Under the pieces are notes generated by a model. It saw only the letters and a program-made list of their open reading frames with translations, was not told the origin of the DNA and ran no database searches. A stretch of 64,000 nt of DNA from an uncultured archaeon (GTDB lineage: Archaea; Altiarchaeota; Altiarchaeia; IMC4; SCGC-AAA252-I15): contig CABMCB010000059.1 in NCBI GenBank assembly GCA_902384455.1, positions 1 through 64,000 of the forward strand, written 5' to 3'. Of the stretch, positions 4,807-61,071 are shown piece by piece (the first letter of the stretch is position 1; every line of letters starts with the position of its first letter). The translations under genes were made by a program, and so were the position numbers.

Positions 4807-4814
4807 ATAAACCC

Positions 4815-4843: not shown

Positions 4844-4850
4844 CTCAAAT

Positions 4851-4955: not shown

Positions 4956-4974
4956 ACGATTTTTAGGAGGAACA

Positions 4975-5692: not shown

Positions 5693-5741
5693 ATTTCTCT
5701 TTTGTCCGGCCCATGGCCTCGTGTGGAAGTGTATTTTCTTC

Positions 5742-5770
5742 TTGACACAGGTAGACTTTTCTGCTACACC
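5742..5770 (+). promoter_or_regulatory. Sigma70-type promoter
   Basis: TTGACA-17 bp-TACACC preceded by TG. Confidence 0.5.
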
Positions 5771-5809
5771 CCACATGTTGCTAGCAGTGAAATCTAAATG
5801 GAGGAAATA

Positions 5810-6280
5810 ATGAAGAAGTTCTTTCTTGCACTCGCTTTACTCGCTCTGCCTCTGTCACTCAAGGCGCAGACCGACCTGAACGGCGACCAGGTTCAAAGCC
5901 AGCAGTACGAGGCTTCCATCGAAGCCAAGTAGGTTGCGGAACAGTCTGCGGAAAAGGCCAAGAACAACCTGACCCGTATCCAAGTCGAGGCCGAACAAGC
6001 GGCAGCGGCTGCTAAGGGTAAGGCGGACGCGGCAATCGCATCGGCAACCGGTGAAGCGCAGTCGGCTTTAATCGTTGCCAAGGCGAAGGCTGAAGCACAG
6101 CGCCTGCAGAAAGAAAACATCACTCCGGAACTGATTCAGATTCGGACGCTCGAACTGCTAGGGAAGAACTGGAAGGGAGACTTTCCAGAGACGTTCTTCG
6201 GCGGCGGTAGCGGTCTGAACCCGGTGAGCATCATCCTTCCTCAGCCGACGCACAAAGCGAAAGCTGAAGACAAGCAGTAA
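5810..6280 (+). pseudogene. Signal peptide plus prohibitin/SPFH C-terminal coiled coil, with in-frame TAG at codon 41 (5930-5932)
   Basis: GGAGG RBS; reads MKKFFLALALLALPLSLKA...YEASIEAK*VAEQSAEKAK...ITPELIQIRTLE...WKGDFP through to TAA at 6278-6280. Confidence 0.75.
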
Positions 6281-46010: not shown

Positions 46011-47612
46011 TTATCCCAGACAAATCCAAGTGATAATTACGGTGTCCGCCACAATGGGCGTTCCTACAAATGTGATAACTAAAGTAGTGGTAGTCGTTGA
46101 TTCTTCGATTGTTGTCAGGGGTTGTGTTCCACCCTGCTGTTTAGCAATAGCAAATGGGGCGACAGCGAATGCGCCATTTTTGAAAGTCAACGTAGTCGTT
46201 GGATTGGGCGCTGGTGCAGTACCTACGGTAACAGTAATCTGCCCACGAGTATCTGTGCTCCCCGAAGTAACTGCAACAGACGCCCCGGTACCCCATCCAG
46301 AAAGAACAAAATCACCAGCAACAAGAGACGTACCCTTTGTCGCCAATATCCGACGAAGCGTACCGTCGTTCAAACTTACATTGAAATTATAAGAAGTCGC
46401 ATTATTGACATAACGAGCAAAAGAAGCATCGGTGACAATTTGTCCTGTACTTGTCGTATCGTTAACAGAATTTACAAAGGTGCCGTTACGGACAGACTCA
46501 AGAACAATATTTTTTGAAATACCTGACGCAGTTTCAGAAATTTTAATAGCGTCCCCGCCGCTTATATTACCACCAAAAGTGACACCTACAATATAAGCAC
46601 TATTAACATTTATGATATCAATTCCGTCTGTTGTCCCTGTTTCTGTCCCTACCTTCTGGCCTTCAAAATAAGTATTCAAAATACTGATATTATTCACAGA
46701 ACCGGGGCCAGACCCGAATCCGGTAGTAGAATCTATGGAAAGTAATGGTTTTCCACCAGCGGAGTGTTCAATAGCTCCACCAAGAAGAGTTATCTGGCCG
46801 CTCGTGCCGTTAATAAGCATTCCGATTGTAGTAAATCCAGAAACACCTTGTGAGCCAATAATCCAATTATTATCCCACATAAACACACTGCAACCTTCAA
46901 TATGAACATTAGAAGGCGTGGTCATCGCCGATGAAAAAACACAATTCCTCACACCACTATTAACAAATACGCGCTTAAAGTGCCCGATAGAATCGGAGCA
47001 AACGGCTGTTTGGTTTCCTTGAAAATAACAGTTTTCAAGAAACATAAATTCTTGTGTACCGTCTTGAGTACCGTTTGCTACAAGGGAACTAACGTTAGCG
47101 GAAGGACCAAGATAAAAACCACCAGAAGAAGGTAGTCCTCCCAAAGACCCGCCCACGCCGCCAACTCCTATAATTGAGCAGGCGTTGAAAACTTGAATAG
47201 CATCAACTCCACCAACTACATTCACATTAAAGCGCGTTCCTCTATCTATTAACAAAGAAACTGCTTTTGTGTTTGTAGTATCTCCGACCCTCAACTGAGA
47301 TGAGATTGTATGAACATTTGCTCCCAAGCCGCGAGCGTCAACTATTCCGCCCCCAGATGGTAAGTCAGCTATAGCGGAAGCAATCCACGCACCAGCATCC
47401 GCTCCCGACCAGCCAGCGGAATTAAGATTATCTACAAATCGAATATTAGAAATGTTTTTTGGAGCAAGCGACGTCCCAAAAGCTAAATTCCCTTGTGGAT
47501 TTCCGACTGAGTCAATCCACGCAATAGGACCGCCACCGCGAACCCGGAGTTGAAGAAAATCTTCTCCCGACGATGTTTCCCAATTATTTTGTGTGGTAGC
47601 CGCCGAATTCAC
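46011..47612 (-). CDS. Beta-helix tailspike/depolymerase-like protein
   Basis: AIADLPSGGGIVDAR followed by periodic N/I/G beta-helix rungs; low GC. Confidence 0.7.
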   Translation of the reverse strand: MNSAATTQNNWETSSGEDFLQLRVRGGGPIAWIDSVGNPQGNLAFGTSLAPKNISNIRFVDNLNSAGWSGADAGAWIASAIADLPSGGGIVDARGLGANVHTISSQLRVGDTTNTKAVSLLIDRGTRFNVNVVGGVDAIQVFNACSIIGVGGVGGSLGGLPSSGGFYLGPSANVSSLVANGTQDGTQEFMFLENCYFQGNQTAVCSDSIGHFKRVFVNSGVRNCVFSSAMTTPSNVHIEGCSVFMWDNNWIIGSQGVSGFTTIGMLINGTSGQITLLGGAIEHSAGGKPLLSIDSTTGFGSGPGSVNNISILNTYFEGQKVGTETGTTDGIDIINVNSAYIVGVTFGGNISGGDAIKISETASGISKNIVLESVRNGTFVNSVNDTTSTGQIVTDASFARYVNNATSYNFNVSLNDGTLRRILATKGTSLVAGDFVLSGWGTGASVAVTSGSTDTRGQITVTVGTAPAPNPTTTLTFKNGAFAVAPFAIAKQQGGTQPLTTIEESTTTTTLVITFVGTPIVADTVIITWICLG

Positions 47613-49309: not shown

Positions 49310-49387
49310 TGGTCGGAGAAGAAAGATTTGAACTTTCGTTCTCTGCTTTCCGAAAGCAGCGGGAACTCCAGGCTTCCCCATTCCCCG
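49310..49387 (-). tRNA. tRNA-Pro(CGG)
   Basis: Cloverleaf; loop TT-CGG-AA; CCA encoded. Confidence 0.9.
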
Positions 49388-49394
49388 ACTGGTG

Positions 49395-49694
49395 TTACGA
49401 CAAATTTTTTGTAATCTTCGGCATCAGCGCGGACTGCTTGAATCTCTGTCCGCCAAAAGAAACGATGTTCATGTCCGGGGTCGGGTCGCTTGCGCCCCAG
49501 TTGAAGATGACCACTTCGTGCTGCTTGGCCTTGTCCAAGAGTTCCGCGAAATCCGCCGGATGAATGTATGTCACTTCACCAGGTAGACCATAGCCTCGGT
49601 GAAGCTGAGCAATCACTGCTCTTGCTTCATCGAGTTCTTTTTTGTACCAGGTCAGTTCTGCTTCTGCTGCCTGGGCCATGCGGACAAGACTCAT
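49395..49694 (-). CDS. Hypothetical protein
   Basis: AAGGA RBS; between tRNAs. Confidence 0.55.
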   Translation of the reverse strand: MSLVRMAQAAEAELTWYKKELDEARAVIAQLHRGYGLPGEVTYIHPADFAELLDKAKQHEVVIFNWGASDPTPDMNIVSFGGQRFKQSALMPKITKNLS

Positions 49695-49711
49695 ATTGGT
49701 CCTTTTGAAAA

Positions 49712-49785
49712 TGGTCGAGAATGCTGGAATCGAACCAACCCCACATGCTCCCAAAGCACGCGTGCGGCCACAACACTTATTCTCG
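49712..49785 (-). tRNA. tRNA-Pro(UGG)
   Basis: Loop TT-TGG-GA; CCA. Confidence 0.9.
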
Positions 49786-49792
49786 ACTAAAC

Positions 49793-50209
49793 TTACGGCA
49801 AAATCTTTTTCTCAATCGCTGCAACCGTGATTGCGCGATAGTGGTCACCGGATGCGGCCTTCGCACCGTGGTCCGGCTGAATCCATTCCAACCAGCGGTT
49901 CATCGCTCTGCCCCACAGATGACCCTTCAGCTTTGCGCGATACGCGTGTGCTGAAATTGTTTCACCGGGCATGCCGTTGAACGCGAGCACGTTGATGAAC
50001 TGGTCAAACGCCACTAGCACTCTGTGCAAGTATGACTCACGCGATGCACGCTGCTCGGCGTGTGCTTCGTCTTCTGCTGTGAATGGCTTCTCAATGTCGA
50101 AGTGTCCTTCGACGGCGGCGCGGATAGATGTCATCACCAAACCCATTGCAACTAAACCAGCAATAGAACCTGCGATTATCTTTCCTGCTAGAAGCAATCC
50201 GTGTAGCAT
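49793..50209 (-). CDS. Membrane protein
   Basis: TM helix; DQFIN...G.P.ETISA motif. Confidence 0.65.
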   Translation of the reverse strand: MLHGLLLAGKIIAGSIAGLVAMGLVMTSIRAAVEGHFDIEKPFTAEDEAHAEQRASRESYLHRVLVAFDQFINVLAFNGMPGETISAHAYRAKLKGHLWGRAMNRWLEWIQPDHGAKAASGDHYRAITVAAIEKKILP

Positions 50210-50223
50210 TGTTCTCCAAAATT

Positions 50224-50298
50224 TGGTTCGGGCGGCACGACTCGAACGTGCATTAACTGGGTCAGAGCCAGTGTTCCTGCCAATTGAAAGACATCCGA
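50224..50298 (-). tRNA. tRNA-Gln(CUG)
   Basis: Loop CT-CTG-AC; CCA. Confidence 0.9.
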
Positions 50299-50368
50299 AC
50301 AGGGCCTACAATTCCGGGCCTTACATCAGGTTCTGAGGCCTAATGCCTGGAAATCTAGGCTTAAAGCT

Positions 50369-50443
50369 TGGTTGGGGCGAGTGGACTCGAACCACTATTA
50401 GAAGTTTCAAAGACTTCCTTCCTGCCAATTGAAAGACATCCCA
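50369..50443 (-). tRNA. tRNA-Gln(UUG)
   Basis: Loop CT-TTG-AA; same D arm as Gln(CUG). Confidence 0.9.
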
Positions 50444-50451
50444 ACGGAAAT

Positions 50452-50667
50452 TTACGGGAGCGGCGACTTCTGTAGATACATCGCCAAACCCAGTATAGCC
50501 GACGCGGCGGAGCCGATTGCGGCCATGATGAGAACATTATGAATGCCAACACCGGGTCGTAGGTTAAAACTCTGTGGCGCGATTCCTATCGCGGAGAAAG
50601 CGTTAATGACACCGCCTGCTGCTCCGCTAATCATCGCTGCCAACAGTCCCTTGGACCAGGGCTTCAT
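50452..50667 (-). CDS. Small two-TM protein (holin-like)
   Basis: AGGAG RBS; ends YLQKSPLP. Confidence 0.6.
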   Translation of the reverse strand: MKPWSKGLLAAMISGAAGGVINAFSAIGIAPQSFNLRPGVGIHNVLIMAAIGSAASAILGLAMYLQKSPLP

Positions 50668-50681
50668 AGTGCTCCTAAAAT

Positions 50682-50755
50682 TGGACCGCCCGAGTGGAGT
50701 CGAACCACTGGTGCCTCTTTTGCAGAGAGGTAGCTTGCCGTTTGCCGACGAGCGG
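50682..50755 (-). tRNA. tRNA-Cys(GCA)
   Basis: Loop CT-GCA-AA; U73. Confidence 0.9.
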
Positions 50756-50756
50756 T

Positions 50757-50843
50757 TGGCGGATGATGAAGGAATCGAACCCTCTCTACCTTTCAGTAGG
50801 CACAGTTTTCAAGACTGCTAGCCCCCATGGACTGCAATCATCC
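50757..50843 (-). tRNA. tRNA-Ser(UGA)
   Basis: Loop CT-TGA-AA; long variable arm; G73. Confidence 0.85.
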
Positions 50844-50852
50844 GTAAAATTT

Positions 50853-50940
50853 TGGCGGAAGGTAAGTGAATCGAACACTTACAACCTTTCGGTTGACTTA
50901 GGTTTAGCAAACCTATACGTTGCCTTTCCGTCAACCTTCC
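50853..50940 (-). tRNA. tRNA-Ser(GCU)
   Basis: Loop TT-GCT-AA; long variable arm; G73. Confidence 0.9.
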
Positions 50941-50943
50941 GCG

Positions 50944-51261
50944 TTACTTCTTGTCTGCGCCGCACTCACCCATCATCACCGTCTTGATTACGTGGTGATT
51001 GGCGCAACGAACTACACATTTAGCAATTTCAGCAAGAACCGTTTCCCACTTCCGACTTGAACCTGCCGCAATCTTGAACGACTTCGTGCTCGGGTCTACG
51101 TGGTCAAACTCCAAGGCAGCTGGATGCCAAACTGTTCCGGGTGCGCAATCCACGCAACCGCTGGATAGTTTGATGGCATCGACCTTGGCGCGAAACTCAA
51201 CATACTTCCTGGCCTGATATGACCGTTGTTGTTTCCGCGATTCTTCTGTTCTGATTCTCAT
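50944..51261 (-). CDS. HNH homing endonuclease
   Basis: CVDC...LEFDHV...EIAKCVVRCANHH. Confidence 0.85.
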   Translation of the reverse strand: MRIRTEESRKQQRSYQARKYVEFRAKVDAIKLSSGCVDCAPGTVWHPAALEFDHVDPSTKSFKIAAGSSRKWETVLAEIAKCVVRCANHHVIKTVMMGECGADKK

Positions 51262-51268
51262 AAATATA

Positions 51269-51552
51269 TTAGTGAGCGTTAGCCTGGATTCTGTATTCCG
51301 GAATACGGAATGACTATCATCCATCTTCGCCTGCTACCCGACCTTCATCACGCTCAACCAGCGCTCCGGTCCTATTTGCAGTTGCACCGATGTGGAGTGC
51401 CCAGTCTTGAATTAACTACGCTGGCCTTACCCGTACTCTCGCGAGTCCCGCAACTTCCACGGCATCGAGTTGAGATGTGTCCAGAACTTCCTCGGTCGCG
51501 TCGGCAAAGGCCGAAACTTTATAGCGCGGACCGCGATAGTCTAGCTCACTAA
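51269..51552 (-). ncRNA. rnpB: RNase P RNA (compact, type-A-like catalytic domain)
   Basis: P1 AGTGAGC/GCTCACT; P2 GACTATC/GATAGTC; CR-I GAGGAAGTTCTGGA; CR-V ACAGAATCCAGGCTAA; P6 CTCAAC/GTTGAG; P7 CGATG/CATCG; GCAA-CTGC-AAATAG...GGGTA-GCAG (P15/L15). Confidence 0.9.
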
Positions 51553-51872
51553 TCTAGTTTAACGTAACCGATGATACACAAAACCGCGACGAATGTCAAC
51601 ATAGAAATTGCGCCTGCGACAATCATCACATCGCCCGGGCTGTAAAGCCATCCCCGGAAACTGATGTAGTCCGCCAGGTATTTCAGGCTGGCGTCTGATG
51701 ACATCGTGCAATGGGTCATGTTCGTGACCTGAAACGGCCAGTCCCATCTGCCGTGATATGCGACCGGCATGAACCCGCCGTTGGCCCACATCACTAGTTT
51801 GTTCATCAAGCCGCCGCCGATATAAGAGCCGAGGCCTGCGAGCGCCCACTTCAAAAAACTTTTGCGCTTCAT
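51549..51872 (-). CDS. Membrane protein (DUF5317-like)
   Basis: N.LVMWANGGFMPV...LAD...SPGD. Confidence 0.65.
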   Translation of the reverse strand: MKRKSFLKWALAGLGSYIGGGLMNKLVMWANGGFMPVAYHGRWDWPFQVTNMTHCTMSSDASLKYLADYISFRGWLYSPGDVMIVAGAISMLTFVAVLCIIGYVKLD

Positions 51873-52636
51873 GACGCCGCTTCGGCCTTCGACACATCCG
51901 CTCGGATGTGACTGATAGGCACCGCGATTGTCGGTGTGGTCGTTCCATCGTAACCGCCGATGACCAACCCGATAATTCTGTGCGTCTTTTCGCTTACGAT
52001 TGCGCTGCCGGATGCGCCGTGCGAATCAAACTGCTGCACGAGCATCATGCCGTGAACCGCTGAGCCAGCCGGAGCGATAACGCTCGCGACACTGCCTCTC
52101 GTCATCTGCTTCGTCATCTTCTCACCGAGTGAGAAATTGACATCCACAGTTGCGTCACCAACGGCGACATCTGATTCGTCGCCCAGTTCGATGACTGGAA
52201 TCTTCGCGTCGGTCTTCATGTAGTAGACCGCGTAGTCTTGGTACTCGACGCCGTCTTCATTCGGCTCAATCACTTCGGCCTTCAGAAGCTTCACGGGCGT
52301 CTTCTCCGTGCCGACGTTGTCGGACACCGAGTAAACCAAACCCTTCGGCAAATCTTCCGGATTGCCCTCGGCGGTGCAGTGCCCTGCACCAATCAATTCG
52401 TAACCGCCAGCGACCTTCTTGAACGCGGTGACCGTGCACAAGAAGTGCGTCACGTCGTGGTCGTTCTTGATTACGCCGTCGTCCGTCTCTATTTCCGCGC
52501 CAGCAGGCAGCGTACCATAGAGCGCCATGCTCGCTTGGTAAACTTTACCGTCGAAGCCGCGAGGTGTCTTCACATCCGCGAACGCCGACGAACAAACCAA
52601 AATCAAAGCCGCTACGAGAGAGAAAATCTTTCTCAT
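51869..52636 (-). CDS. Secreted trypsin-like serine protease
   Basis: Signal peptide; AGHC, QDYA, HGASGS catalytic triad. Confidence 0.85.
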   Translation of the reverse strand: MRKIFSLVAALILVCSSAFADVKTPRGFDGKVYQASMALYGTLPAGAEIETDDGVIKNDHDVTHFLCTVTAFKKVAGGYELIGAGHCTAEGNPEDLPKGLVYSVSDNVGTEKTPVKLLKAEVIEPNEDGVEYQDYAVYYMKTDAKIPVIELGDESDVAVGDATVDVNFSLGEKMTKQMTRGSVASVIAPAGSAVHGMMLVQQFDSHGASGSAIVSEKTHRIIGLVIGGYDGTTTPTIAVPISHIRADVSKAEAAS

Positions 52637-52743
52637 CTACATTTGCCCGTCAGACACGCCTTGGCAGAGCACCGGTGTCAGACATGCGCCGTTCCAATTG
52701 GACCCTCTGCTCGGCGAACATCAGCAAATCAGCTATTAAGTTT

Positions 52744-52818
52744 TGGACGACCCGTCGGGACTTGAACCCGAATCCTCGGTTTAGGAAACCGTAACTCTTT
52801 CCATTGAGCTACAGGTCG
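52744..52818 (-). tRNA. tRNA-Arg(CCU)
   Basis: Loop TT-CCT-AA. Confidence 0.9.
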
Positions 52819-52819
52819 T

Positions 52820-52894
52820 TGGTAGGCCGTGGAGGAATCGAACCTCCATTCAGCGCTTAGAAGGCGCTAGTCCTGTCCGTTGAACGAACAGCCC
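52820..52894 (-). tRNA. tRNA-Arg(UCU)
   Basis: Loop CT-TCT-AA. Confidence 0.9.
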
Positions 52895-52900
52895 ACAGAA

Positions 52901-52981
52901 AAGTTGCCGACCGCCTTGTCCGTCTGGCTCCACAGGTTTTCAAGACCCGTGCCGGGAGTCGAACCCGGTTTTGTCGGACTT
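52901..52981 (-). ncRNA. Circularly permuted tRNA-like RNA (YrlA/Y-RNA-like) no. 1
   Basis: GTCCGAC-aaaa-CCGGG-TTCGACT-CCCGG-CACGGGT-cttgaaa-ACCTGTG-GA-GCC-agacggacaa-GGC-G-GTCGG. Confidence 0.75.
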
Positions 52982-53039
52982 GTCGGGCGCGTGGCTGGCC
53001 GTGTCACAGCCCTTTGGACTCGCGTTATCCGACTGAAAT

Positions 53040-53113
53040 TGGCAGGACGCGTAGGAATTGAACCCACTCCGTTCGGGTTGGAGCCGAACATGCTACCGTA
53101 ACACTTGCGACCT
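53040..53113 (-). tRNA. tRNA-Trp(CCA)
   Basis: Loop CT-CCA-AC. Confidence 0.9.
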
Positions 53114-53163
53114 GTAGTGCTCAAGAGCACACTGGGTGAGTTAGTGTGCCCTTGAGGTAAGAC

Positions 53164-53239
53164 TGGAGCGTGATACCAGATTCGAACTGGTGCGTACTGG
53201 GTGGAAGCCAGTCATGCTAGCCGCTAACATCAATCGCGC
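53164..53239 (-). tRNA. tRNA-Gly(UCC)
   Basis: Loop CT-TCC-AC; U73. Confidence 0.9.
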
Positions 53240-53248
53240 TCGAAACTA

Positions 53249-53518
53249 TTAAACTGTTGGTGCCGGAGCAAGTGCTGCTACGACGGTTGCATCTACCGCG
53301 TCAACTGCTGCTGCGTCTGCCGCGTCCTTCGCTGCTACTGCTGCTGCTACAGCGGTCGGGCCATTTTCAGCAATCAACTTAGCGATGTCTGCTTGCAACT
53401 TTGCCATGCTGTCTGCGAATGCCATCATTTCTCTCCGTAGTGCGTGAAGTAACAACCTGTCTTGATGCGATAGTTCGACTACTAACTTCGGGTTAGGTGA
53501 TTGGGCTTTTCCAAACAT
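53249..53518 (-). CDS. Small Ala-rich protein
   Basis: GAGG RBS; start uncertain. Confidence 0.5.
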   Translation of the reverse strand: MFGKAQSPNPKLVVELSHQDRLLLHALRREMMAFADSMAKLQADIAKLIAENGPTAVAAAVAAKDAADAAAVDAVDATVVAALAPAPTV

Positions 53519-53540
53519 TCGAACCTCGCTTTCAATTTTT

Positions 53541-53614
53541 TGGAGCGACGTACCAGAATCGAACTGGTGCCCGAACCTTGGCAAGGTTCTGTTCTACCAC
53601 TATACCAACATCGC
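53541..53614 (-). tRNA. tRNA-Gly(GCC)
   Basis: Loop TT-GCC-AA. Confidence 0.9.
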
Positions 53615-53617
53615 TCG

Positions 53618-53953
53618 TTACAAACCTCTGAACATCACCATGGCCTTTTCGTGGAGCACCAACTGCTCTGGTGTCATCTGGCCCACAACCTTGCGGAAGC
53701 GGCCCATCTTTCTGTTCACGTTCGGCCTGGTCGGGATGGTCGTCCTTACTGCTAGAGGACCGTCACCGTTCTGTTGCTCAACGAACTGTCTCGCCTGTGC
53801 TTCAGAACTAAATCTCTTCTCAACAATTTCTCCGGTGTTGTTGTCCAACTTCGTCGCGGAGTGTCCGAGCCAGTTCCACTTGTCTCCGTGGTTGCGCTCG
53901 TGCGGCAATCTTTTGCGGTCTTCATTTTCATGCTTCGGACGTTCGATTCGCAT
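53618..53953 (-). CDS. Hypothetical basic protein
   Basis: AAGGTG RBS; fills the gap between tRNAs. Confidence 0.55.
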   Translation of the reverse strand: MRIERPKHENEDRKRLPHERNHGDKWNWLGHSATKLDNNTGEIVEKRFSSEAQARQFVEQQNGDGPLAVRTTIPTRPNVNRKMGRFRKVVGQMTPEQLVLHEKAMVMFRGL

Positions 53954-53966
53954 AGTCACCTTAAAA

Positions 53967-54040
53967 TGGTACCCGTGGTCGGAATCGAACCGACGCTACG
54001 TCCGTGAGAGGGACGCGTTCTACCACTAGACTACATGGGC
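53967..54040 (-). tRNA. tRNA-Glu(CUC)
   Basis: Loop CT-CTC-AC. Confidence 0.9.
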
Positions 54041-54048
54041 ACAGAAAA

Positions 54049-54123
54049 TGGCGGAGATAGCGGGAATCGAACCCGCACTTTGCCCGTGACAGGGGCATGT
54101 CGTTACCAACTGACCCTATCTCC
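54049..54123 (-). tRNA. tRNA-Asp(GUC)
   Basis: Loop CT-GTC-AC; G73. Confidence 0.9.
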
Positions 54124-54130
54124 GCGAAAC

Positions 54131-54204
54131 TGGAGCTTCGTAAAGGAATTGAACCTTTACCTCATCCTTACCAAGGATGCGTTCTGCCGTTGAACTAACA
54201 AAGC
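54131..54204 (-). tRNA. tRNA-Thr(GGU)
   Basis: Loop TT-GGT-AA. Confidence 0.9.
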
Positions 54205-54214
54205 GTAAAACTTA

Positions 54215-54293
54215 TCCGGTGTGCTACCGTTACACTATAGCAACGAGCGGCTTTACCCGTTCCCGCCTGTGGGATTCGAACCCCTCTACCGGA
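54215..54293 (-). ncRNA. Circularly permuted tRNA-like RNA no. 2
   Basis: TCCGGT-ag..GGG-TTCGAAT-CCC-[hairpin]-TAGTGTAACGGTAGCAC-ACCGGA. Confidence 0.6.
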
Positions 54294-54297
54294 AGAT

Positions 54298-54371
54298 TGG
54301 AGCACCGTCGTGGAATCGAACCACGGCTTCTGCGCTACGAGGGCAGCTTCATGCCACTAGAACAACAGTGC
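54298..54371 (-). tRNA. tRNA-Thr(CGU)
   Basis: Loop CT-CGT-AG; C31:C39 mismatch. Confidence 0.85.
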
Positions 54372-54379
54372 AAAACTTT

Positions 54380-54488
54380 TGGAGGAAGTCCCTCTCACTT
54401 GGCCCATCCGGCGCAGGGCACCCCGAAGGGCTGGAGGTCCGCTTTCGACTGTGAAGAAGAAGCGTACTTACCGTTGAAGACTTCCTTC
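54380..54488 (-). ncRNA. CCA-ended structured RNA of unknown type
   Basis: AGGAAGTC/GACTTCCT then CCA; CGCTT/AAGCG arm; CCC-TTCG-GGG tetraloop hairpin. Confidence 0.5.
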
Positions 54489-54507
54489 GCCTTGCGGCGA
54501 GTAATCA

Positions 54508-54583
54508 TGGAGCACATCGCTGGATTCGAACCAACGTGTCGAAGGTACAAGCTTCGCATACTAGACCGCTGTATGAGACGTGC
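54508..54583 (-). tRNA. tRNA-Thr(UGU)
   Basis: Loop CT-TGT-AC. Confidence 0.9.
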
Positions 54584-54589
54584 TCGATA

Positions 54590-54665
54590 TGGCGTATCCC
54601 CTAGGATTTGAACCTAGGACCCTTCGGTTAACAGCCGAATGCTCTGGCCGCTGAGCTAGGGATAC
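54590..54665 (-). tRNA. tRNA-Asn(GUU)
   Basis: Loop CT-GTT-AA; G73. Confidence 0.9.
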
Positions 54666-54670
54666 AAAGA

Positions 54671-54758
54671 TGGCTGGAGCAGCAGGACTCGAACCTGCAA
54701 TGTGCTTTCGCACTGCCTGGGTAACAGCCAGGTGCTGTACCAATTGAGCCACACTCCA
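54671..54758 (-). tRNA. tRNA(GUU), Asn anticodon with long variable arm
   Basis: Loop CT-GTT-AC; variable arm GTGC-GAAA-GCAC; G73; 88 nt. Confidence 0.85.
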
Positions 54759-54768
54759 GTAGAAATTT

Positions 54769-54843
54769 TGGAGCACCCACTCGGAATCGAACCGAGATAG
54801 TCAGTTTCGAAGACTGATGCCCTATCCGTTGGACGACAGGTGC
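54769..54843 (-). tRNA. tRNA-Arg(UCG)
   Basis: Loop CT-TCG-AA. Confidence 0.9.
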
Positions 54844-55160
54844 TCGTGTGTTCTGATGCGATGACAATTTGCACAAACGACATCGCATTTCGAAATTTCT
54901 TCCAGTAACTTCTCCATTGAGGAGTTGTGATAGCCGCTGGAAATGTTGAACTTCTTTACTCCGCGAACATGGTCAAAATCCATGCACACAGATGGGAACT
55001 TGTTCCCGCAATCAGCACACGCGACGTTCTTAGCTGGCTCGATTATCTCCGCGTACAGTCTTTCTTTCCGTTTCGCGGATTTGTCGATGTAATACTGCTT
55101 GTGGTTTTTGTAATGCCTTCGGCCACAAGCTTTAGCCAGTTCTGAATTAGCGTACGCCAT
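54822..55160 (-). CDS. HNH homing endonuclease; stop codon inside tRNA-Arg(UCG)
   Basis: CADCG...MDFDHV...EISKCDVVCANCH. Confidence 0.85.
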   Translation of the reverse strand: MAYANSELAKACGRRHYKNHKQYYIDKSAKRKERLYAEIIEPAKNVACADCGNKFPSVCMDFDHVRGVKKFNISSGYHNSSMEKLLEEISKCDVVCANCHRIRTHEHLSSNG

Positions 55161-55164
55161 AAAT

Positions 55165-55241
55165 TGGTAGACCGTGGTGGATTTGAACCAACCATTATAG
55201 CCTTCGCAGGGCTATGTCCTATCCAGTTGAACGAACAGTCC
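55165..55241 (-). tRNA. tRNA-Arg(GCG)
   Basis: TAGCC-CT-GCG-AA-GGCTA. Confidence 0.9.
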
Positions 55242-55279
55242 ACATTAAATCGTACTTTCGAAAATTTGTCAAGAACTAT

Positions 55280-55954
55280 TTAGTTCAGTACTTCAACAAC
55301 TGCGGTTCTCATCTGGATAGATGAAAGCGCTGAGCCGGTCACAGCCTGCAACAGCAGGTTGTTCGTGCTCGCTGCGGTCAAGTTAACCGCTATGCCAGCC
55401 GCTACGTTGGTGTCCTGATACTCTGACATCGGAGCGGTTGCTGAAGCACCAATCAAGATTGCCAAAGCGCCGTGTCCTTCAAGCGTACCGGATGCACCGG
55501 TTGAAACTGTGTAAATGTGGCCTTCGAAGTTCCATGGGAAGTTCGTTTGTGAGGCCGTTGTCGCTTGGCTCGTCGCGGTCAAAACCGTCTGAGTGAAAGC
55601 GCCAGAGAAACCTAGCTGAATACCAATCGTCGGCGTCTGTGCGCCAGCCGTGGTGTAAATGCCCCACATGCGTACGCGAAGAACCTTTCCGGCGACGTTC
55701 ATGAACGCGGTCGGTAGCGCCAATGTGGCGAACGTTCCCGTGCCGTTCAATGCCGTCAGTGCAGCCGGAGCCGCGTTGTAAACAATCGCTGCGCCGCCTA
55801 GAGCGTAGTTCAAACCGTTCCAGAAGTACTTGCCCGACTTCTGCGTCGTATCGTACCAGTAATCTCCGTCAATCGGAGAAGCCGGTGCAACACCGGACGG
55901 AATGTTCAAGGGCGCTGCTGCCGCTGTTGAGTTCGGCAATGTGAGAAATGACAT
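55280..55954 (-). CDS. Tail-fibre-like Ala/Thr/Gly-rich protein
   Basis: APLNIPSGVAPASPIDGDYWYD head motif; GAGGAG RBS. Confidence 0.6.
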   Translation of the reverse strand: MSFLTLPNSTAAAAPLNIPSGVAPASPIDGDYWYDTTQKSGKYFWNGLNYALGGAAIVYNAAPAALTALNGTGTFATLALPTAFMNVAGKVLRVRMWGIYTTAGAQTPTIGIQLGFSGAFTQTVLTATSQATTASQTNFPWNFEGHIYTVSTGASGTLEGHGALAILIGASATAPMSEYQDTNVAAGIAVNLTAASTNNLLLQAVTGSALSSIQMRTAVVEVLN

Positions 55955-56037
55955 TTCTCCTCTCTTCGGCTACGCGCCGATATCACTGATGATGCAACTT
56001 GTACAAGATGAAAAGACTGATTGCTACACCAAGGACG

Positions 56038-56283
56038 TTACACACTGTTCGGGTCACTGCCAGCGCTAGGTCCAGTCTTTGGTGGTTCATTCTTCTCTTC
56101 TTTGCGCTTGGTCCGTTGCTCGTACCATTTGCGCCGTAAATCCAGATATTCCTTCTGCGCCGCGAGACTTTCCTGACTAACTTTCAGGCTCTCTTCAGCC
56201 ATGCGCTTCATTGCGTGGTCGTCGATGTAGATTGCGACCAGGATGAATATTTCTAAGACAAGAAGTGCATCCTGCCAAGTCAT
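56038..56283 (-). CDS. Small membrane protein
   Basis: TM helix plus coiled coil. Confidence 0.55.
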   Translation of the reverse strand: MTWQDALLVLEIFILVAIYIDDHAMKRMAEESLKVSQESLAAQKEYLDLRRKWYEQRTKRKEEKNEPPKTGPSAGSDPNSV

Positions 56284-56298
56284 AGTCACCTTCAAAAT

Positions 56299-56374
56299 TG
56301 GTACCCAGTGAGTGAATCGAACACTCCCCACCTCTTTGTAGGAGAGGCGCATACGACCAGTTTGCTAACCGGGT
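56299..56374 (-). tRNA. tRNA-Val(UAC), C33
   Basis: Loop CC-TAC-AA. Confidence 0.85.
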
Positions 56375-56682
56375 AATGCCTTAGCGATTTGTTGTTTCTT
56401 GATTCTCGCGTAAGGACGAATCTTTTTCAAAAACTCTCTTGCATTTCTGTTTGACACTATCCATCGCCAAACCTTTTTGTTGGTTCGTTTATCAGATGTG
56501 TGAATAGTGCCGAACTTAAAAAGGCGTTGAACGAACTTCAAAACTTTCACGTCTGTGTTCGTTATCGTTGCAATCGTTCGAAAATAATACTTGCCGTTCT
56601 TCGTTGCCTGATATTTCGCGAAACGGCAATGGCCTTCACCATCGAACAACCCACTCACATAAGCTAAGTCGATTTTTCTCAC
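56365..56682 (-). CDS. Single-motif LAGLIDADG homing endonuclease; stop codon inside tRNA-Val
   Basis: LAYVSGLFDGEG, ITNTD..VL, FL..IRPY..IKKQQ. Confidence 0.85.
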   Translation of the reverse strand: MRKIDLAYVSGLFDGEGHCRFAKYQATKNGKYYFRTIATITNTDVKVLKFVQRLFKFGTIHTSDKRTNKKVWRWIVSNRNAREFLKKIRPYARIKKQQIAKALPG

Positions 56683-56701
56683 TTAGTGCCTTTCGTAAAC
56701 T

Positions 56702-56775
56702 TGGTGGACCGCCGGAGAGTCGAACTCCGTCTTGATGCGTGCAAGGCAACCGTATTCCCGTCCTACTCGCAGCCC
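56702..56775 (-). tRNA. tRNA-Ala(UGC)
   Basis: Loop CT-TGC-AC; G3:U70. Confidence 0.9.
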
Positions 56776-56783
56776 ACATAAAT

Positions 56784-56857
56784 TGGTTGCGGATGTCGGA
56801 GTCGAGCCGACCAGCAGTGCTTATGAGACACCGTACCTCACCCGAGGTGTACCCGCA
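56784..56857 (-). tRNA. tRNA(CAU), Met/fMet-like, atypical
   Basis: Loop CT-CAT-AA; T loop CTCGACT; irregular D arm. Confidence 0.75.
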
Positions 56858-56866
56858 AAAGAAAAT

Positions 56867-56942
56867 TGGTAGCGTCGGCGGGATTCGAACCCGCGTGAGG
56901 ACCTTGAAAGGGTCCCATCCTAGGCCACTAGATGACATCGCC
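56867..56942 (-). tRNA. tRNA-Glu(UUC)
   Basis: Loop CT-TTC-AA. Confidence 0.9.
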
Positions 56943-57055
56943 ACAAAAGAAGCTAGAGCATGGCTTCTTTACAACTTCAGCTTACGCAAGGCTCCCGGCT
57001 GAAGCGCCCATACAGCGGGTGTTTACCGAGTAAACAACCCACATATGGGTTAAAT

Positions 57056-57140
57056 TGGTACCCCGTGAGAGATTTGAACTCCCATGGCTGTTAACCGACG
57101 CGTTCTAAGCGCGTTGTGTCTGCCGTTCCACCAACAGGGC
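57056..57140 (-). tRNA. tRNA-Leu(UAG)
   Basis: Loop CT-TAG-AA; long variable arm. Confidence 0.9.
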
Positions 57141-57151
57141 ACTGAAACTTA

Positions 57152-57211
57152 TGGAGCGGTCACTACCTGTGTGACAGGCACCTCCCCGGGCACTGCCCGG
57201 GAGCACCGCTC
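57152..57211 (-). ncRNA. CCA-ended two-arm mini-RNA
   Basis: GAGCGGT/ACCGCTC-CA closing stem; TCCCGGGC/GCCCGGGG and TGCCTGT/ACAGGTA arms. Confidence 0.5.
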
Positions 57212-57213
57212 GC

Positions 57214-57396
57214 TTACTTACGCATGTCTCGCACATGCTGGTAATATGAAAGCTGGTCCACCGGACGGTCGTGGTCATGACGACGGTCTTCGATGTCCGC
57301 GCTCATCGGATAATCTTTCGGGACTTGAAATCCCTTTGACGTATCCTTCGCGTCTCCGACAACTTTCATGCCTAGCTTCGGCTTATCGTCGGGCAT
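57214..57396 (-). CDS. Small hypothetical protein
   Basis: GAGGT RBS. Confidence 0.55.
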   Translation of the reverse strand: MPDDKPKLGMKVVGDAKDTSKGFQVPKDYPMSADIEDRRHDHDRPVDQLSYYQHVRDMRK

Positions 57397-57408
57397 ATTA
57401 CCTCAAAC

Positions 57409-57483
57409 TGGTAGTCTCTCTGTGACTCGAACACAGGTCTCTCGCTAATCAGGCAAGCATCCTAGCCGCTGGACGAAAAGACT
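57409..57483 (-). tRNA. tRNA-Ile(GAU), U37
   Basis: Loop CT-GAT-TA. Confidence 0.85.
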
Positions 57484-57491
57484 ACTGAAAT

Positions 57492-57582
57492 TGGTGGATG
57501 CGGAATGATTCGAACATTCTATGTGCCACAAGGACATCCTGTTTTACAGACAGGTACGACCCGCCGTCTTCGCCGCACATCC
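57492..57582 (-). tRNA. tRNA-Tyr(GUA)
   Basis: Loop CT-GTA-AA; long variable arm. Confidence 0.85.
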
Positions 57583-57593
57583 ACTGAAACTAA

Positions 57594-57680
57594 GGGAACC
57601 CACGGGTCACTCACCCGCGCCAATCACGGGTCCGGTACCGGATATCCGTAATCGTTCAATCTACCTCGAACTGCGTTCCC
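57594..57680 (-). ncRNA. Four-way-junction structured RNA
   Basis: GGGAAC/GTTCCC closing stem with three internal hairpins. Confidence 0.5.
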
Positions 57681-57688
57681 ACGAAACT

Positions 57689-57764
57689 TGGTGGGTCGCC
57701 AGCGACTTGAACGCTGAACTTGCTCCTTAAAAGGGAGAAATGTTGCCGCTAACACCTGCAACCC
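57689..57764 (-). tRNA. tRNA-Lys(UUU)
   Basis: Loop CT-TTT-AA. Confidence 0.9.
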
Positions 57765-57797
57765 ACGATAATCGGTAACGTTCTACCGATTGAAACT

Positions 57798-57872
57798 TGG
57801 TGGACTACCAGGGATTCGAACCCTGACCAAACTCGTTAAGAGCGAGCTATGCAACCGTAACACCTGTGGTCC
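57798..57872 (-). tRNA. tRNA-Lys(CUU)
   Basis: Loop CT-CTT-AA. Confidence 0.9.
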
Positions 57873-58020
57873 ACTGAAAAATCTGACAGCTTGTTGTCAT
57901 GGAACGGACTTTAATCGGAGTTCTACCGATGCTGTCTACGCCGTCTCACGTTGTATCCCCGCGTGAAGACTGTGTTCACGCCTCATGTTAAGCGACGACA
58001 CTGTCTCGTCGCGGGAAGAT

Positions 58021-58109
58021 TGGTACTCGATGAAGGAATCGGACCTTCGTGCAAGCGTAATCTACGCCGACTCGTTATAAGCGAGTGCCGCAAACCATCG
58101 CAATCGAGT
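58021..58109 (-). tRNA. tRNA(UAU), Ile anticodon with long variable arm
   Basis: ACTCG-CT-TAT-AA-CGAGT; variable arm GCGTA-GAT-TACGC; T loop TCCGATT; ACTCGAT/ATCGAGT-A-CCA. Confidence 0.8.
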
Positions 58110-58115
58110 AAAAAG

Positions 58116-58224
58116 TTGTCCGGAGCGTACGCTTTCGGCGTCTCACCCGCCATCACGAATGCCGCGTCAACGGCACTGACTTCCCCTCGTTAGACTCGGT
58201 TGACGCCGGTCGCGAGTCGGACAA
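58116..58224 (-). ncRNA. Structured spacer RNA
   Basis: TTGTCCG/CGGACAA outer stem; GCGTCAAC/GTTGACGC inner stem. Confidence 0.45.
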
Positions 58225-58226
58225 AT

Positions 58227-58305
58227 TGGTGCGCCGCGTGAGATTCGAACTCACATGTGGTCACGTTTTAAGTGTGCCGCGTATGCCGCATTCCGCCAGC
58301 AGCGC
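58227..58305 (-). tRNA. tRNA-Leu(UAA) lacking the long variable arm
   Basis: Leu-type D arm; loop CT-TAA-AA; 79 nt. Confidence 0.8.
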
Positions 58306-58532
58306 TAAACTCTTGTGCTCGTCGCGGAAGCTAGCGTATCGCTGGTTCCGGGCTGATACGCAACCGTACCTGAAGCACAAACATCGCTAGGGTCAACAAC
58401 CCATTGCTTCCATGCCAGCCGGGTTGCAACCCGTAGGCACTTCAGATGTGGACTTCTACCACGCGAAAACTTATGAGACAGCCCTGGCCGAAGCCACTCC
58501 GGGTAATACCTTAGTCTTACGTCTCAAACTTT

Positions 58533-58593
58533 TTCGGTGTGCCCACTACACTACTTCTGGCTAGGCCAGCACGGAGTCGAACCGTCTACCGAA
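58533..58593 (-). ncRNA. Circularly permuted tRNA-like RNA no. 3 (minimal)
   Basis: TTCGGT-ag-ACGG-TTCGACT-CCGT-g-CTGGC-cta-GCCAG-aag-TAGTGTAGTGGGCAC-ACCGAA. Confidence 0.65.
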
Positions 58594-58596
58594 TCT

Positions 58597-58683
58597 TGGT
58601 CGCCCACACAGGACTCGAACCTGTACGCTTTTCACGGCACCGGGTTTTGAATCCGGCATGTCTGCCAGTTCCATCAGCAGGCG
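58597..58683 (-). tRNA. tRNA-Leu(CAA)
   Basis: Loop TT-CAA-AA; long variable arm. Confidence 0.9.
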
Positions 58684-58742
58684 AAATTCTCCCGGCAAAG
58701 GCCGGGAAGGGGTGGTTACCTCAGCGCTAAGCGCTCCTAAAT

Positions 58743-58816
58743 TGGTCCCTGCTGTTTGAATCGAACAAACACGACCGGCTTTTCAGACCGGGATGCGACC
58801 ACTACATCAAACAGGG
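58743..58816 (-). tRNA. tRNA-Phe(GAA)
   Basis: Loop CT-GAA-AA. Confidence 0.9.
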
Positions 58817-58817
58817 T

Positions 58818-58892
58818 TGGGGCGAACGTCGGGATTCGAACCCGAACCGGCGGATTCACAGTCCACCGTGCTGCCGTTACACTACACACGCC
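58818..58892 (-). tRNA. tRNA-His(GUG)
   Basis: Loop CT-GTG-AA; G-1:C73. Confidence 0.9.
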
Positions 58893-59934: not shown

Positions 59935-60422
59935 TATGAACCAAAGTGCTTTCGGGTGTCAAGACCCAAATGCTTGAACGCGGCGACGACTTTTTCGCGG
60001 AACTCGTCAAACTCTTCCCGGCGGATGCGCGGGTTGCTGATGTCGAGCGCGGCCAGGAATCCTAGTTCGCTCGCGGCCTGCTCGACCAGGGTGTCGAGAA
60101 CCTTCTGGCCCTCGGGAGTGTCAAAAATTGTCACATCGCCGGTTTGCGCTGCGCGGGATGCGCTCGCGGTCGCCGGAGTGAGAAATGGGTTGGGATTGCC
60201 CATCGTGTCGGTCTCGGACTTCATGTCGAAGCCTTCGTGCTTCTGCAGAATGGAGAGGATGGCCTCGGCGTCGGGCTTGGCCGGACTGTATCCGGGGCCT
60301 TTATCGAAATCGGTCTGAGATTCGGTCTCAGCGGCCTTAACTTCTGCGGCTTCAAGTTTTTGGCGCTCGAATGCCTGTCCCGCCGTCTCAGGGACGCGGT
60401 TGACTATCGTTTCGGTGCTCAT
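59934..60422 (-). CDS. Hypothetical acidic protein
   Basis: AAGGA RBS before MSTE. Confidence 0.6.
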   Translation of the reverse strand: MSTETIVNRVPETAGQAFERQKLEAAEVKAAETESQTDFDKGPGYSPAKPDAEAILSILQKHEGFDMKSETDTMGNPNPFLTPATASASRAAQTGDVTIFDTPEGQKVLDTLVEQAASELGFLAALDISNPRIRREEFDEFREKVVAAFKHLGLDTRKHFGS

Positions 60423-61071
60423 TGTGTCCTTCACGCTTCAGCCGAATCAATTCCAAGGCCGGAGCGATTGTGTTCATTTCTTCAAACGTAAATTCTAGCC
60501 TACCGCGTAACTCCATGCACCGGATACAAGCCGGAACTGAGTTGTATGCTGTAACTACCATCCCTTCGATAAAATCCAGGGATGTTCCTTTCTTGTCCAG
60601 GACGGAGCCGCAATAATGGCACTCGTCTTCAGATAGCAATCCTTCGTAAAAATTGATACTCCATAGGGGGTCAGTCTCCGGCACCCTATGATTTCTCATA
60701 ACGTCCCTTAGGACGGCATGCTTTGCTCCGAGGCTCCCGGTTTTCGTTCCGGATAGCTTTTCCCGGGTTCTGATTCTTTTAGCTTTGTCCCGCTCAACCT
60801 GTATCGCTTCGTTTCGACGAGTAAGGCGCTCGATGCGCTCCTCGCGCTGTCGGTCGTTGTTCTCCCTTTGAAGACACCCGCAGCTTTTCTTCCGGCCTAG
60901 GAGTAGCTTATCCTCCCGAGCCTCTGTCTCATTCCCGCAGTCACAAGATGCGACCCAGACTCTTCTTCCCTTCTCAGAATGAGAAAAGTTCTCAATAGTG
61001 AGACGTGAGAATTTCATACCCGGCTCTATGGTGAGACGGGGGGTCTGATTTGATACCCGGTTAGGTGTCAC
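60388..61071 (-). CDS. HNH-family endonuclease-like protein
   Basis: W...CDCGN...L.G.KKSCGC; CHYCG...SLD...NSVPAC..C. Confidence 0.7.
   Translation of the reverse strand: MTPNRVSNQTPRLTIEPGMKFSRLTIENFSHSEKGRRVWVASCDCGNETEAREDKLLLGRKKSCGCLQRENNDRQREERIERLTRRNEAIQVERDKAKRIRTREKLSGTKTGSLGAKHAVLRDVMRNHRVPETDPLWSINFYEGLLSEDECHYCGSVLDKKGTSLDFIEGMVVTAYNSVPACIRCMELRGRLEFTFEEMNTIAPALELIRLKREGHNEHRNDSQPRP

Follow-up and report, generated by a model that had tools for sequence, protein, structure and literature searches.

A candidate two-domain phage RNA: a conserved hairpin module on a circularly permuted tRNA-like body in a tRNA array

The window analysed here is a 64,000-nt stretch, positions 1 to 64,000 of contig CABMCB010000059.1 (C59; 99.9 kb in full), from the 2.41-Mb assembly (bin) GCA_902384455.1 of an uncultured archaeon. 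It carries tailed-phage genes and a long array of tRNA genes, and the 145-nt spacer between the tRNA-Trp and tRNA-Arg(UCU) genes of this array very probably encodes a real, conserved, structured RNA of two domains on the minus strand. The 5′ domain is an irregular hairpin capped by a nearly invariant module of about 33 nt, and the second domain is a circularly permuted tRNA-like four-way junction. The fuller proposal, in which the element is a phage noncoding RNA (ncRNA) of about 135-145 nt with the module acting as effector on a tRNA-like scaffold, presumed function included, is held with evenly balanced confidence. The full RNA is taken to span the spacer; its 3′ part is 52901-52981, and its 5′ part reaches about 53033. 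A sequence-only reading had taken 52901-52981 for the whole element; its 3′ half was correct, but the 5′ half, which is the most conserved part, was missed, and the element does not end at 52981.

Permuted tRNA-like domain

From 5′ to 3′, the domain comprises a closing-stem strand (GUCCGAC), 4 nt (AAAA), a T arm (CCGGG-UUCGACU-CCCGG), a closed 7-bp acceptor-like hairpin (CACGGGU-CUUGAAA-ACCUGUG), 2 nt (GA), a D arm (GCC-AGACGGACAA-GGC), 1 nt (G), and the second closing-stem strand (GUCGG). The closing helix is prolonged by AAGU/ACUU beyond a 2-nt CA bulge. All helices of the sequence-only reading are found at 52901-52981, on the minus strand, and the four-way junction is exactly the minimum-free-energy (MFE) fold of the 81 nt, at -28.4 kcal/mol. 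The order T arm, acceptor-like stem, D arm (T-AS-D) with tRNA linker lengths is, as had been noted, the topology of the YrlA tRNA-like domain in the Rfam YrlA consensus and in the available text of Chen et al. 2014 (PMC4201824).

The stability of this fold is unremarkable (z = -1.1), with 27 of 200 shuffled sequences equally stable. A descriptor was composed of a 5-bp T stem with a [GU]UC[AG]ANN loop, 0 nt, a 7/7-bp hairpin, 2 nt, a D arm with GG, 1 nt, a 5-bp closing stem, and a variable stretch of 4-5 nt. It matches once in the 2.41-Mb assembly, both strands included, and never in 10 shuffled genomes. The feature above chance is the topology, not the energy. The order of the canonical tRNA (RF00005) is permuted and its 7-nt anticodon loop is absent, and neither ARAGORN nor Rfam makes a call on the element; Rfam, at the gathering threshold and at E<=10, has nothing on the module either. 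Rfam matches to mascRNA (14.3 bits) and, on the plus strand, to Pseudomon-groES (18.8 bits) are noise. A plus-strand cloverleaf with a UCA "anticodon" was also rejected: it has the wrong linkers (none before the T arm and 4 nt behind it), A-C where the minus strand has G-U, and no T-loop consensus, which occurs on the minus strand only.

Conserved module of the 5′ arm

The highest conservation in the spacer, as judged from C59 and a related copy on contig C38 of the same bin, is found in the 5′ half, from about 53033 to 52982. This arm contains the module, whose general form is G-AGUCCAAAG-P2-UGACANGGC-P2′-AC, that is P1, AGUCCAAAG, a 5-bp P2, UGACANGGC, P2′, A, and P1′; it is met at 52991-53021. 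Here the internal loop AGUCCAAAG faces a single A, the 5-bp P2 is GGCUG/CAGCC, and the 9-nt loop is UGACACGGC.

The module is found well beyond this phage, among uncultured phages and prophages from many phyla of bacteria. A search with 12 nt of the module plus a T loop 35-55 nt downstream gives 11 IMG/VR and 34 metagenome loci, and the whole module is present in 44 of these 45. The half formed by P2 and its loop (P2/L2), used alone as bait, retrieves 117 IMG/VR stretches, and of the 135 unique copies assembled with this bait, 123 have GAGTCCAAAG as their other half; the sequence UCCAAA is near-invariant. A search with the module only yields 16 genome contigs, all titled bacterial and from many phyla, including the cultured Pandoraea iniqua. 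Genes for terminase, capsid, DnaB, and a Tad2-like protein surround the matches in the genome contigs. One stand-alone copy adjoins a Tad2-like anti-defence gene.

In a set of 121 copies, the two P1 pairs beside the core form in 98% and 97%, compared with 84% and 45% after shuffling; all six pair types occur at the second. P2 covaries, occurring as GGCUG/CAGCC, GGCUA/UAGCC, and GGUAA/UUACC. An alternative P2 proposed by RNAalifold (GGCUGU/ACGGCC) was discarded, as only the register GGCUG/CAGCC accommodates the variants GGUAA/UUACC and GGCUA/UAGCC. A possible coding sequence in the module (ESKGL-stop) was likewise discarded; it is altered by the GGUAA variant, and free-standing hairpins occur that have no tRNA-like part.

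The module thus far appears to be an undescribed and widespread phage RNA module. Rfam 15 has no family for it and gives no match to the hepatitis delta virus (HDV) ribozyme family. A 41-nt module query is unmatched among the INPHARED phages, which is weak evidence at roughly one copy per 25,000 IMG/VR contigs. The literature searched gives no description of the module or of a permuted tRNA-like RNA in a phage tRNA array, although the module may be among the 8,495 IMG/VR candidate RNAs of Fremin et al. 2023 (PMC10690425), of which part of the text was available. The sole literature match to its sequence words is an unrelated chicken primer. The exact 31-mer has no match in IMG/VR, and a pattern of the T arm plus CUUGAAA gives 16 chance matches, none of them permuted. 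The neighbouring proteins encoded at 51869-52636 and 46011-47612 find no relatives in IMG/VR when used as bait. Terminase genes lie within 2.5 kb in 21 of 159 module loci, which is approximately the random expectation for a genome of about 50 kb; proximity to terminase and nearness to contig ends were both set aside as not clearly beyond chance.

Homologues and covariation

The homologue family of the element consists of nine members, namely C59, C38, L032 (=L056), L036, L043, L057, L063, L122, and L144. The C38 copy (C38:22271-22409) was found by BLAST in 21 genomes of the bin's family and is 79% identical over 138 nt. Contig C38 belongs to a related phage, with 69% DNA identity to C59 in the portal gene and 75% in a head gene. 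Its element is placed between tRNA-Tyr and tRNA-Trp, while that of C59 lies between Trp and Arg; since the flanking tRNAs differ, the element moves as a unit. The pairwise alignment of the two copies already contains compensatory changes in three helices: the closing stem, the T stem, and the acceptor-like stem. Pattern searches of metagenome and IMG/VR contigs gave five further homologues (L032 (=L056), L036, L043, L057, and L063), and a covariance model of the seven, run on 100 further loci, added L122 (128 bits) and L144 (111 bits). In six of the nine, the element directly adjoins a tRNA-Trp gene.

In a MAFFT alignment of the seven homologues, 88.2% of cells are paired in the predicted structure; the share drops to 28-46% if the 3′ partners are shifted by 1-3 columns. 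Changes on both sides occur in 15 of 38 pairs, and the covariation score is reached by none of 500 column shuffles. RNAalifold, with no structure imposed, arrives at P0, P1, the T arm, the acceptor hairpin, and the closing stem; 14 of its 32 pairs have compensatory changes. Every helix but the D stem is backed by compensatory changes; the covariation of the D stem is not countable because the MAFFT columns are misaligned, and by eye a separate D arm with GG is visible in every homologue. Several pairs that are G-U on the minus strand would be A-C on the other, which fixes the strand of the RNA. Conservation, on which the sequence-only reading had made itself depend, is borne out: the element is kept as a structured RNA in nine homologues with covariation.

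The closed loop CUUGAAA is identical to the anticodon loop of the phage tRNA-Ser(UGA) at 50757-50843, as had been noticed. This identity is not a conserved property, as homologues have CUCGAAA, CUCAACA, CUCAAAA, or CUGAAAA; most members retain C-U at the start of the loop and A-A at its end. The halves of the element show no likeness to any tRNA of the C59 or C38 arrays, the best alignment score being 10 of 64, and the element is therefore not a recent remnant of tandem tRNAs.

Scaffolds that carry the module

A set of 102 unique copies was collected with no reference to tRNA. In 24 of them a T arm follows downstream within 110 nt; the remaining copies cap plain long hairpins or other junctions. 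In type A, the commoner tRNA-associated form, the module arm lies inside a gene of ordinary tRNA topology. This type comprises 32 genes with 7/7-bp acceptor stems of diverse sequence, several of which are followed by an encoded CCA. When introns are allowed, ARAGORN takes 17 of 42 for tRNAs with an intron, but their anticodons are inconsistent, and the Rfam tRNA model spans L037 (45 bits) and L071 (41 bits) as a tRNA with a large insert. In L025, L026, and L037 the anticodon stem passes directly into the arm, leaving no anticodon loop of 7 nt, so the arm replaces the anticodon loop and does not interrupt it.

The window element represents type B. Here the arm comes first; then follow the 3′ strand of the anticodon stem, the variable stretch, the T arm, the two acceptor strands (3′ before 5′) with the loop between them, the D arm, and the 5′ strand of the anticodon stem. 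Type B is a circular permutation of type A in which the opening falls between the arm and the 5′ strand of the anticodon stem.

Other scaffolds are also met. The module carrier at about 1227-1338 of L052 (minus strand) has G3:U70 and no D stem, and its ends weakly match the model of transfer-messenger RNA (tmRNA; 25.4 bits). It has the appearance of a miniature tmRNA-like tRNA domain with the module replacing all else. In the IMG/VR loci L097, L099, L100, and L103 the module arm and another small hairpin together belong to a three-way junction that immediately precedes a terminase gene, and this scaffold is recurrent.

Proposed function

The element would be transcribed with the minus-strand tRNA array, in which it would fill one "tRNA slot". 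The enzymes that process the flanking tRNAs would then cut the RNA from the array transcript; this release is suggested by the leader AUUUCA and the tail UUCUGU of the spacer, which are similar to the trailers and leaders of the adjoining tRNAs and resemble those usual in the array. The module would be the effector and would bind a highly conserved partner. The tRNA-like body would serve as a natural tRNA scaffold or handle, recognised by the processing enzymes and stably folded into an L, and may bring the module to the tRNA-handling machinery. Small RNAs conserved to the degree of the module are usually ribozymes, form a pocket for a ligand, or touch a universal machine.

By analogy with YrlA, the closed 7-bp stem may be opened in its loop by RNase P, and its 3′ side trimmed and provided with CCA, which would yield a two-piece RNA. 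The available text of Chen et al. 2014 (PMC4201824) reports that the 7-bp acceptor-like stem of Mycobacterium smegmatis YrlA is cut by RNase P and receives CCA. For the element this is the least secure step, because the stem is imperfect in four homologues.

Several observations weigh against the effector-on-scaffold proposal. Transcription, the RNA ends, and loop cleavage are all deduced from the position in the array; a search for sequencing runs listed small-share DNA runs of a single study and no RNA run. The flanking tRNAs would already free a bare hairpin, and the retention of the permuted body is therefore not accounted for by processing alone. In L122 and L144 the acceptor-like stem is weak, with six positions including mismatches, and in L063 and L043 it has mismatches or a bulge; a strict 7-bp RNase P substrate is hence not universal. 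The U8-A14 pair and other tRNA tertiary pairs are not conserved among the homologues. No protein family recurs beside the module beyond chance in 159 loci.

A broader and more tentative idea, which is somewhat doubtful, is that the element belongs to a new class of phage tRNA-scaffolded effector RNAs. In these, the module, possibly a compact fold of T-loop type, would stand in place of the anticodon loop on ordinary or permuted tRNA bodies, which are possibly matured by RNase P and CCA addition into two-piece forms, and would target universally conserved bacterial machinery of translation or tRNA surveillance. If so, the module could blunt tRNA-directed defence or reprogramme ribosomes. Permuted tRNA-like RNAs are known in few systems, namely YrlA, two-piece tmRNA, and algal and archaeal tRNA genes; added here is a permuted family with clear covariation, in phage and without Ro60. 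The repeated grafting of the module onto tRNA bodies by phages suggests a natural use of the tRNA-scaffold trick of engineers. The module is a small, defined, and testable object, and one copy is present in a prophage of the cultured Pandoraea iniqua strain LMG 31009 (L076:4648-4678).

Alternative explanations

The sequence-only reading had taken the element for a Y-like RNA. An RNA of the YrlA kind would bind the host Ro60/Rsr ring by its stem or module, and its tRNA-like domain would recruit a second factor, e.g., polynucleotide phosphorylase. The T-AS-D domain and its linker lengths are the same as in the Rfam YrlA consensus. The available text of Chen et al. 2014 (PMC4201824) gives GNCGAAN0-1G as the YrlA motif and GGUCCGA as that of vertebrate Y RNAs; GUCCAAAG of the module is one defined position off the former, and GUCC is common with the latter. 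Yet GUCCAAAG is sited in the internal loop of a hairpin and not in a terminal helix. RF02553 is unmatched on the element both at its gathering threshold (69 bits) and at E<=10 (501-nt search), and elsewhere in the assembly it matches tandem-tRNA junctions only, which are known YrlA false positives (PMC4201824, available text). The GUCCGA of the closing stem, which had been named a Y-RNA motif, is found in two of the seven aligned homologues (C59 and L032), and the others have GUCCAA, GUCCUA, GUCCGG, AUCCAA, or AUCGAC. A YrlA is expected to have a Ro60/TROVE gene within about 4 kb on the same strand (same source), and the element has none: TROVE is absent from the Pfam-scanned open reading frames (ORFs) of the 99.9-kb contig and from the assembly. 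It is also absent from G021, a 98.5-kb, 97%-complete related phage record with a type B copy. Only one of 26 module-bearing viral records has TROVE, or one of 15 among those at least 90% complete. This single case (n = 1) is G071 (L195), a complete, 68-kb IMG/VR phage with a divergent Ro60-like protein (TROVE at 45 bits plus vWA, 4472-5872), in which the module hairpin at 412-436, then AAGUCGGAC, lies 4 kb upstream of the TROVE region on the same strand. Directly upstream of its TROVE gene are two separate, sub-threshold YrlA-like sequences (4121-4237 and 4307-4364; 33.7 and 31.4 bits against the 69-bit gathering score), so the module is not the YrlA of G071. Ro60 occurs in about 5% of bacteria (PMC4201824, available text), whereas the module is met in many phyla. 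None of 61 genomes of the bin's phylum has TROVE, but this is uninformative about the real host, as the bin is archaeal and the phage bacterial in type. A YrlA-type RNA is thus improbable; the Y-RNA reading had the shape right and the family wrong, or at least unsupported.

Phage tRNA arrays are thought to replace tRNAs cut by defences, and an element within such an array could be a decoy or inhibitor of a tRNA-directed defence nuclease (an anticodon nuclease or a PIN/VapC-type toxin). Its J1/2 strand GUCCAAA would imitate a tRNA-Trp-like loop (CUCCAAA), or its closed loop an anticodon loop. This agrees with the near-invariant UCCAAA, the adjoining tRNA-Trp of six homologues in nine, the C-U-N-N-N-A-A loops on the acceptor-like hairpin of most homologues, and the Tad2-like gene beside one stand-alone copy. 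It is nevertheless rather unlikely: the "anticodon" of the closed loop varies (UGA, CGA, CAA, GAA), so that no single tRNA is mimicked, P2 and UGACANGGC have no counterpart in an anticodon arm, and the loci examined show no tie between the module and a defence system. Very improbable is a true permuted and interrupted tRNA gene, whose ends would be joined and whose hairpin arm would be excised as an intron to give a decoding tRNA, perhaps tRNA-Ala. The element is exactly the circular permutation of a tRNA-shaped form, tRNA-Ala is absent from the C59 and C38 arrays according to the tRNA gene calls, and the bin has RtcB and a tRNA-splicing endonuclease. Both enzymes are, however, on archaeal contigs, while the phage tRNAs are bacterial in type; the forms inspected (L025 by hand) have no bulge-helix-bulge and no recoverable 7-nt YU-NNN-R-N loop; the element lacks G3:U70; and the phage contig has no RNA ligase. 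Finally, the element might have no function of its own, either as what is left of two tandem tRNA genes in decay or as a two-piece tmRNA in miniature. Tandem tRNAs do yield the same T-acceptor-D order (the false positives of YrlA searches mentioned above), and L052 has G3:U70 and ends that resemble tmRNA. Against a remnant are the compensatory changes in the helices (D stem uncounted), the different neighbours of the homologues, and the absence of likeness to any array tRNA; against a tmRNA are the lack of a tmRNA or permuted tmRNA call by ARAGORN or Rfam, the lack of G3:U70 in the element, and the lack of room for a tag reading frame. Covariation largely refutes this last explanation, which is extremely improbable.

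Comparison with known RNAs

YrlA (RF02553): Like the element, YrlA is an ncRNA of two modules, with a T arm, a closed acceptor-like stem, and a D arm in a closing helix and with linkers of 4/0/2/0-1 nt. It also occurs in phages, being found in Ro60-encoding bacteria and mycobacteriophages, and its acceptor-like stem has 7 bp in M. smegmatis (Chen et al. 2014, available text). In contrast, the D arm of the element lacks the near-invariant AGCUCA..GGUAGAGC, no rsr/TROVE gene is adjacent, and there is no Rfam match. The other module of the element is a 5′ hairpin with a different and far more conserved core, whereas that of YrlA is a terminal GNCGAA stem.

Two-piece tmRNA (RF04321): Standard and permuted gene orders, an acceptor stem formed across an intervening loop, and a long helix in place of the anticodon arm are common to both. 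The element differs by its size of only about 140 nt and by the absence of G3:U70, a tag reading frame, pseudoknots, and an Rfam or ARAGORN call.

Permuted and split tRNA genes: In Cyanidioschyzon merolae and some Archaea the 3′ half precedes the 5′ half and the acceptor strands are joined by a short stretch, as in the element. The permuted tRNAs of these organisms need a bulge-helix-bulge motif and a splicing endonuclease, and they yield decoding tRNAs. The element, in contrast, is in a phage of bacterial type and has no anticodon loop and, by inspection, no bulge-helix-bulge.

tRNA-linked hairpin RNAs: Known examples comprise the tRNA-miRNA (TMER) genes of murine gammaherpesvirus 68 (MHV68), mascRNA, and the engineered "tRNA scaffold", where an RNA of interest takes the place of the anticodon arm. 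As proposed for the element, they have a working hairpin that is joined to a tRNA-like body or stands where its anticodon arm would be, and the body provides processing and stability, but they are eukaryotic, viral-eukaryotic, or artificial. A natural tRNA-scaffold RNA of bacteriophages, permuted or not, was not found in the literature searched.

Theta ribozymes: According to the available text of PMC10879173, these minimal HDV-like ribozymes adjoin phage tRNAs, lie in 3′ trailers, and have the HDV double-pseudoknot fold. They share with the module that they are small structured RNAs tied to tRNA genes of uncultured phages. The module differs in having no HDV-family Rfam match and in being located inside or before a tRNA-like body.

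Phage contig, host, and neighbouring features

The window contains a tailed-phage gene set on the minus strand, with terminase (40301-42586), portal (38199-40304), and major head protein (35569-36597). The array comprises 34 tRNA genes at 49310-58891, every one on the minus strand, with HNH endonuclease genes interspersed. The features of the spacer and its surroundings are given in Table 1.

Table 1. Features of the element, its two flanking tRNA genes, and the archaeal enzyme genes of the bin (window coordinates unless a contig is named)
Feature	Position	Strand	Evidence or remark
tRNA-Trp(CCA), upstream neighbour	53040..53113	-	Encoded CCA at end; ARAGORN, Rfam
Whole spacer between tRNA-Trp and tRNA-Arg(UCU), 145 nt; transcript slot assigned to the putative ncRNA	52895..53039	-	79% identical copy in C38
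5′ arm: P0 (GUCGG/CCGAC), 4-nt bulge AUAA, P1 (CGCG/CGCG), module cap	52982..53033	-	RNAalifold finds P0 and P1; double changes in both
Conserved module G-AGUCCAAAG-GGCUG-UGACACGGC-CAGCC-A-C	52991..53021	-	About 33 nt including flanking P1 pair
Closing helix, 5′ strand AAGU-CCGAC (anticodon-stem equivalent)	52973..52981	-	MFE fold, covariation, RNAalifold
T arm CCGGG-UUCGACU-CCCGG	52952..52968	-	MFE fold; double changes in 3/5 pairs; RNAalifold
Closed acceptor-like hairpin CACGGGU-CUUGAAA-ACCUGUG, 7 bp; 7-nt loop 52938-52944	52931..52951	-	Double changes in 4/7 pairs; RNAalifold
D arm GCC-AGACGGACAA-GGC, GG in loop	52913..52928	-	MFE fold
Closing helix, 3′ strand GUCGG-(CA bulge)-ACUU	52901..52911	-	MFE fold, covariation, RNAalifold
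tRNA-Arg(UCU), downstream neighbour	52820..52894	-	ARAGORN, Rfam
Archaeal enzymes of the bin (splicing endonuclease, RtcB)	C71:38338-38598, C11:46361-47647		Compared with window 57492-57582

The core of the bin is archaeal: it encodes RtcB, and its largest contig has a tRNA-splicing endonuclease (E = 2e-29). Of TROVE/Ro60 and RtcB, the two genes proposed for a search by the sequence-only reading, RtcB is present, but on an archaeal contig, and the phage contig has no RNA ligase. A long variable arm, G1-C72, and A73 are marks of bacterial tRNA-Tyr. The tRNA-rich viral contigs C59, C38, and C4 have such bacterial-type tRNAs, with a class II tRNA-Tyr (long variable arm), G1-C72, and A73, and with CCA encoded throughout. 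Because of this difference from the bin core, the phage contigs were probably binned with the wrong organism. The phage host most likely has no splicing endonuclease, and since the phage tRNAs are of bacterial type, maturation of a permuted tRNA by archaeal splicing is unlikely here.

Several contig ends of the assembly coincide. C68:59166-59292 and C4:1-127 overlap exactly, with 127 nt at 100% identity, and C10:1-30 and C38:36516-36657 have a short tandem repeat in common. On account of these ends, C68 with C4 and C38 with C10 are probably each one viral genome split by the assembler.

Some other genes of the window may be mentioned. Four HNH endonuclease genes lie within or beside the tRNA array on the minus strand (50944-51324, 54822-55160, 56365-56682, and 60388-61071), and an endonuclease VII-like ORF is present at 725-1195 on the plus strand. 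A family of the endonuclease VII type is near 14 of 159 module loci, mainly in type B phages. The array includes the unusual tRNA-Asn(GUU) of 88 nt and tRNA-Ile(UAU) of 89 nt, both with long variable arms in the ARAGORN drawings, and a tRNA-Phe with the anticodon AAA; these unusual tRNAs are located on the minus strand at 54671-54758, 58021-58109, and 58227-58305. A tyrosine-integrase-like ORF at 11500-12459 on the plus strand (PHROG 1, E = 5e-21) suggests that the phage may be temperate.

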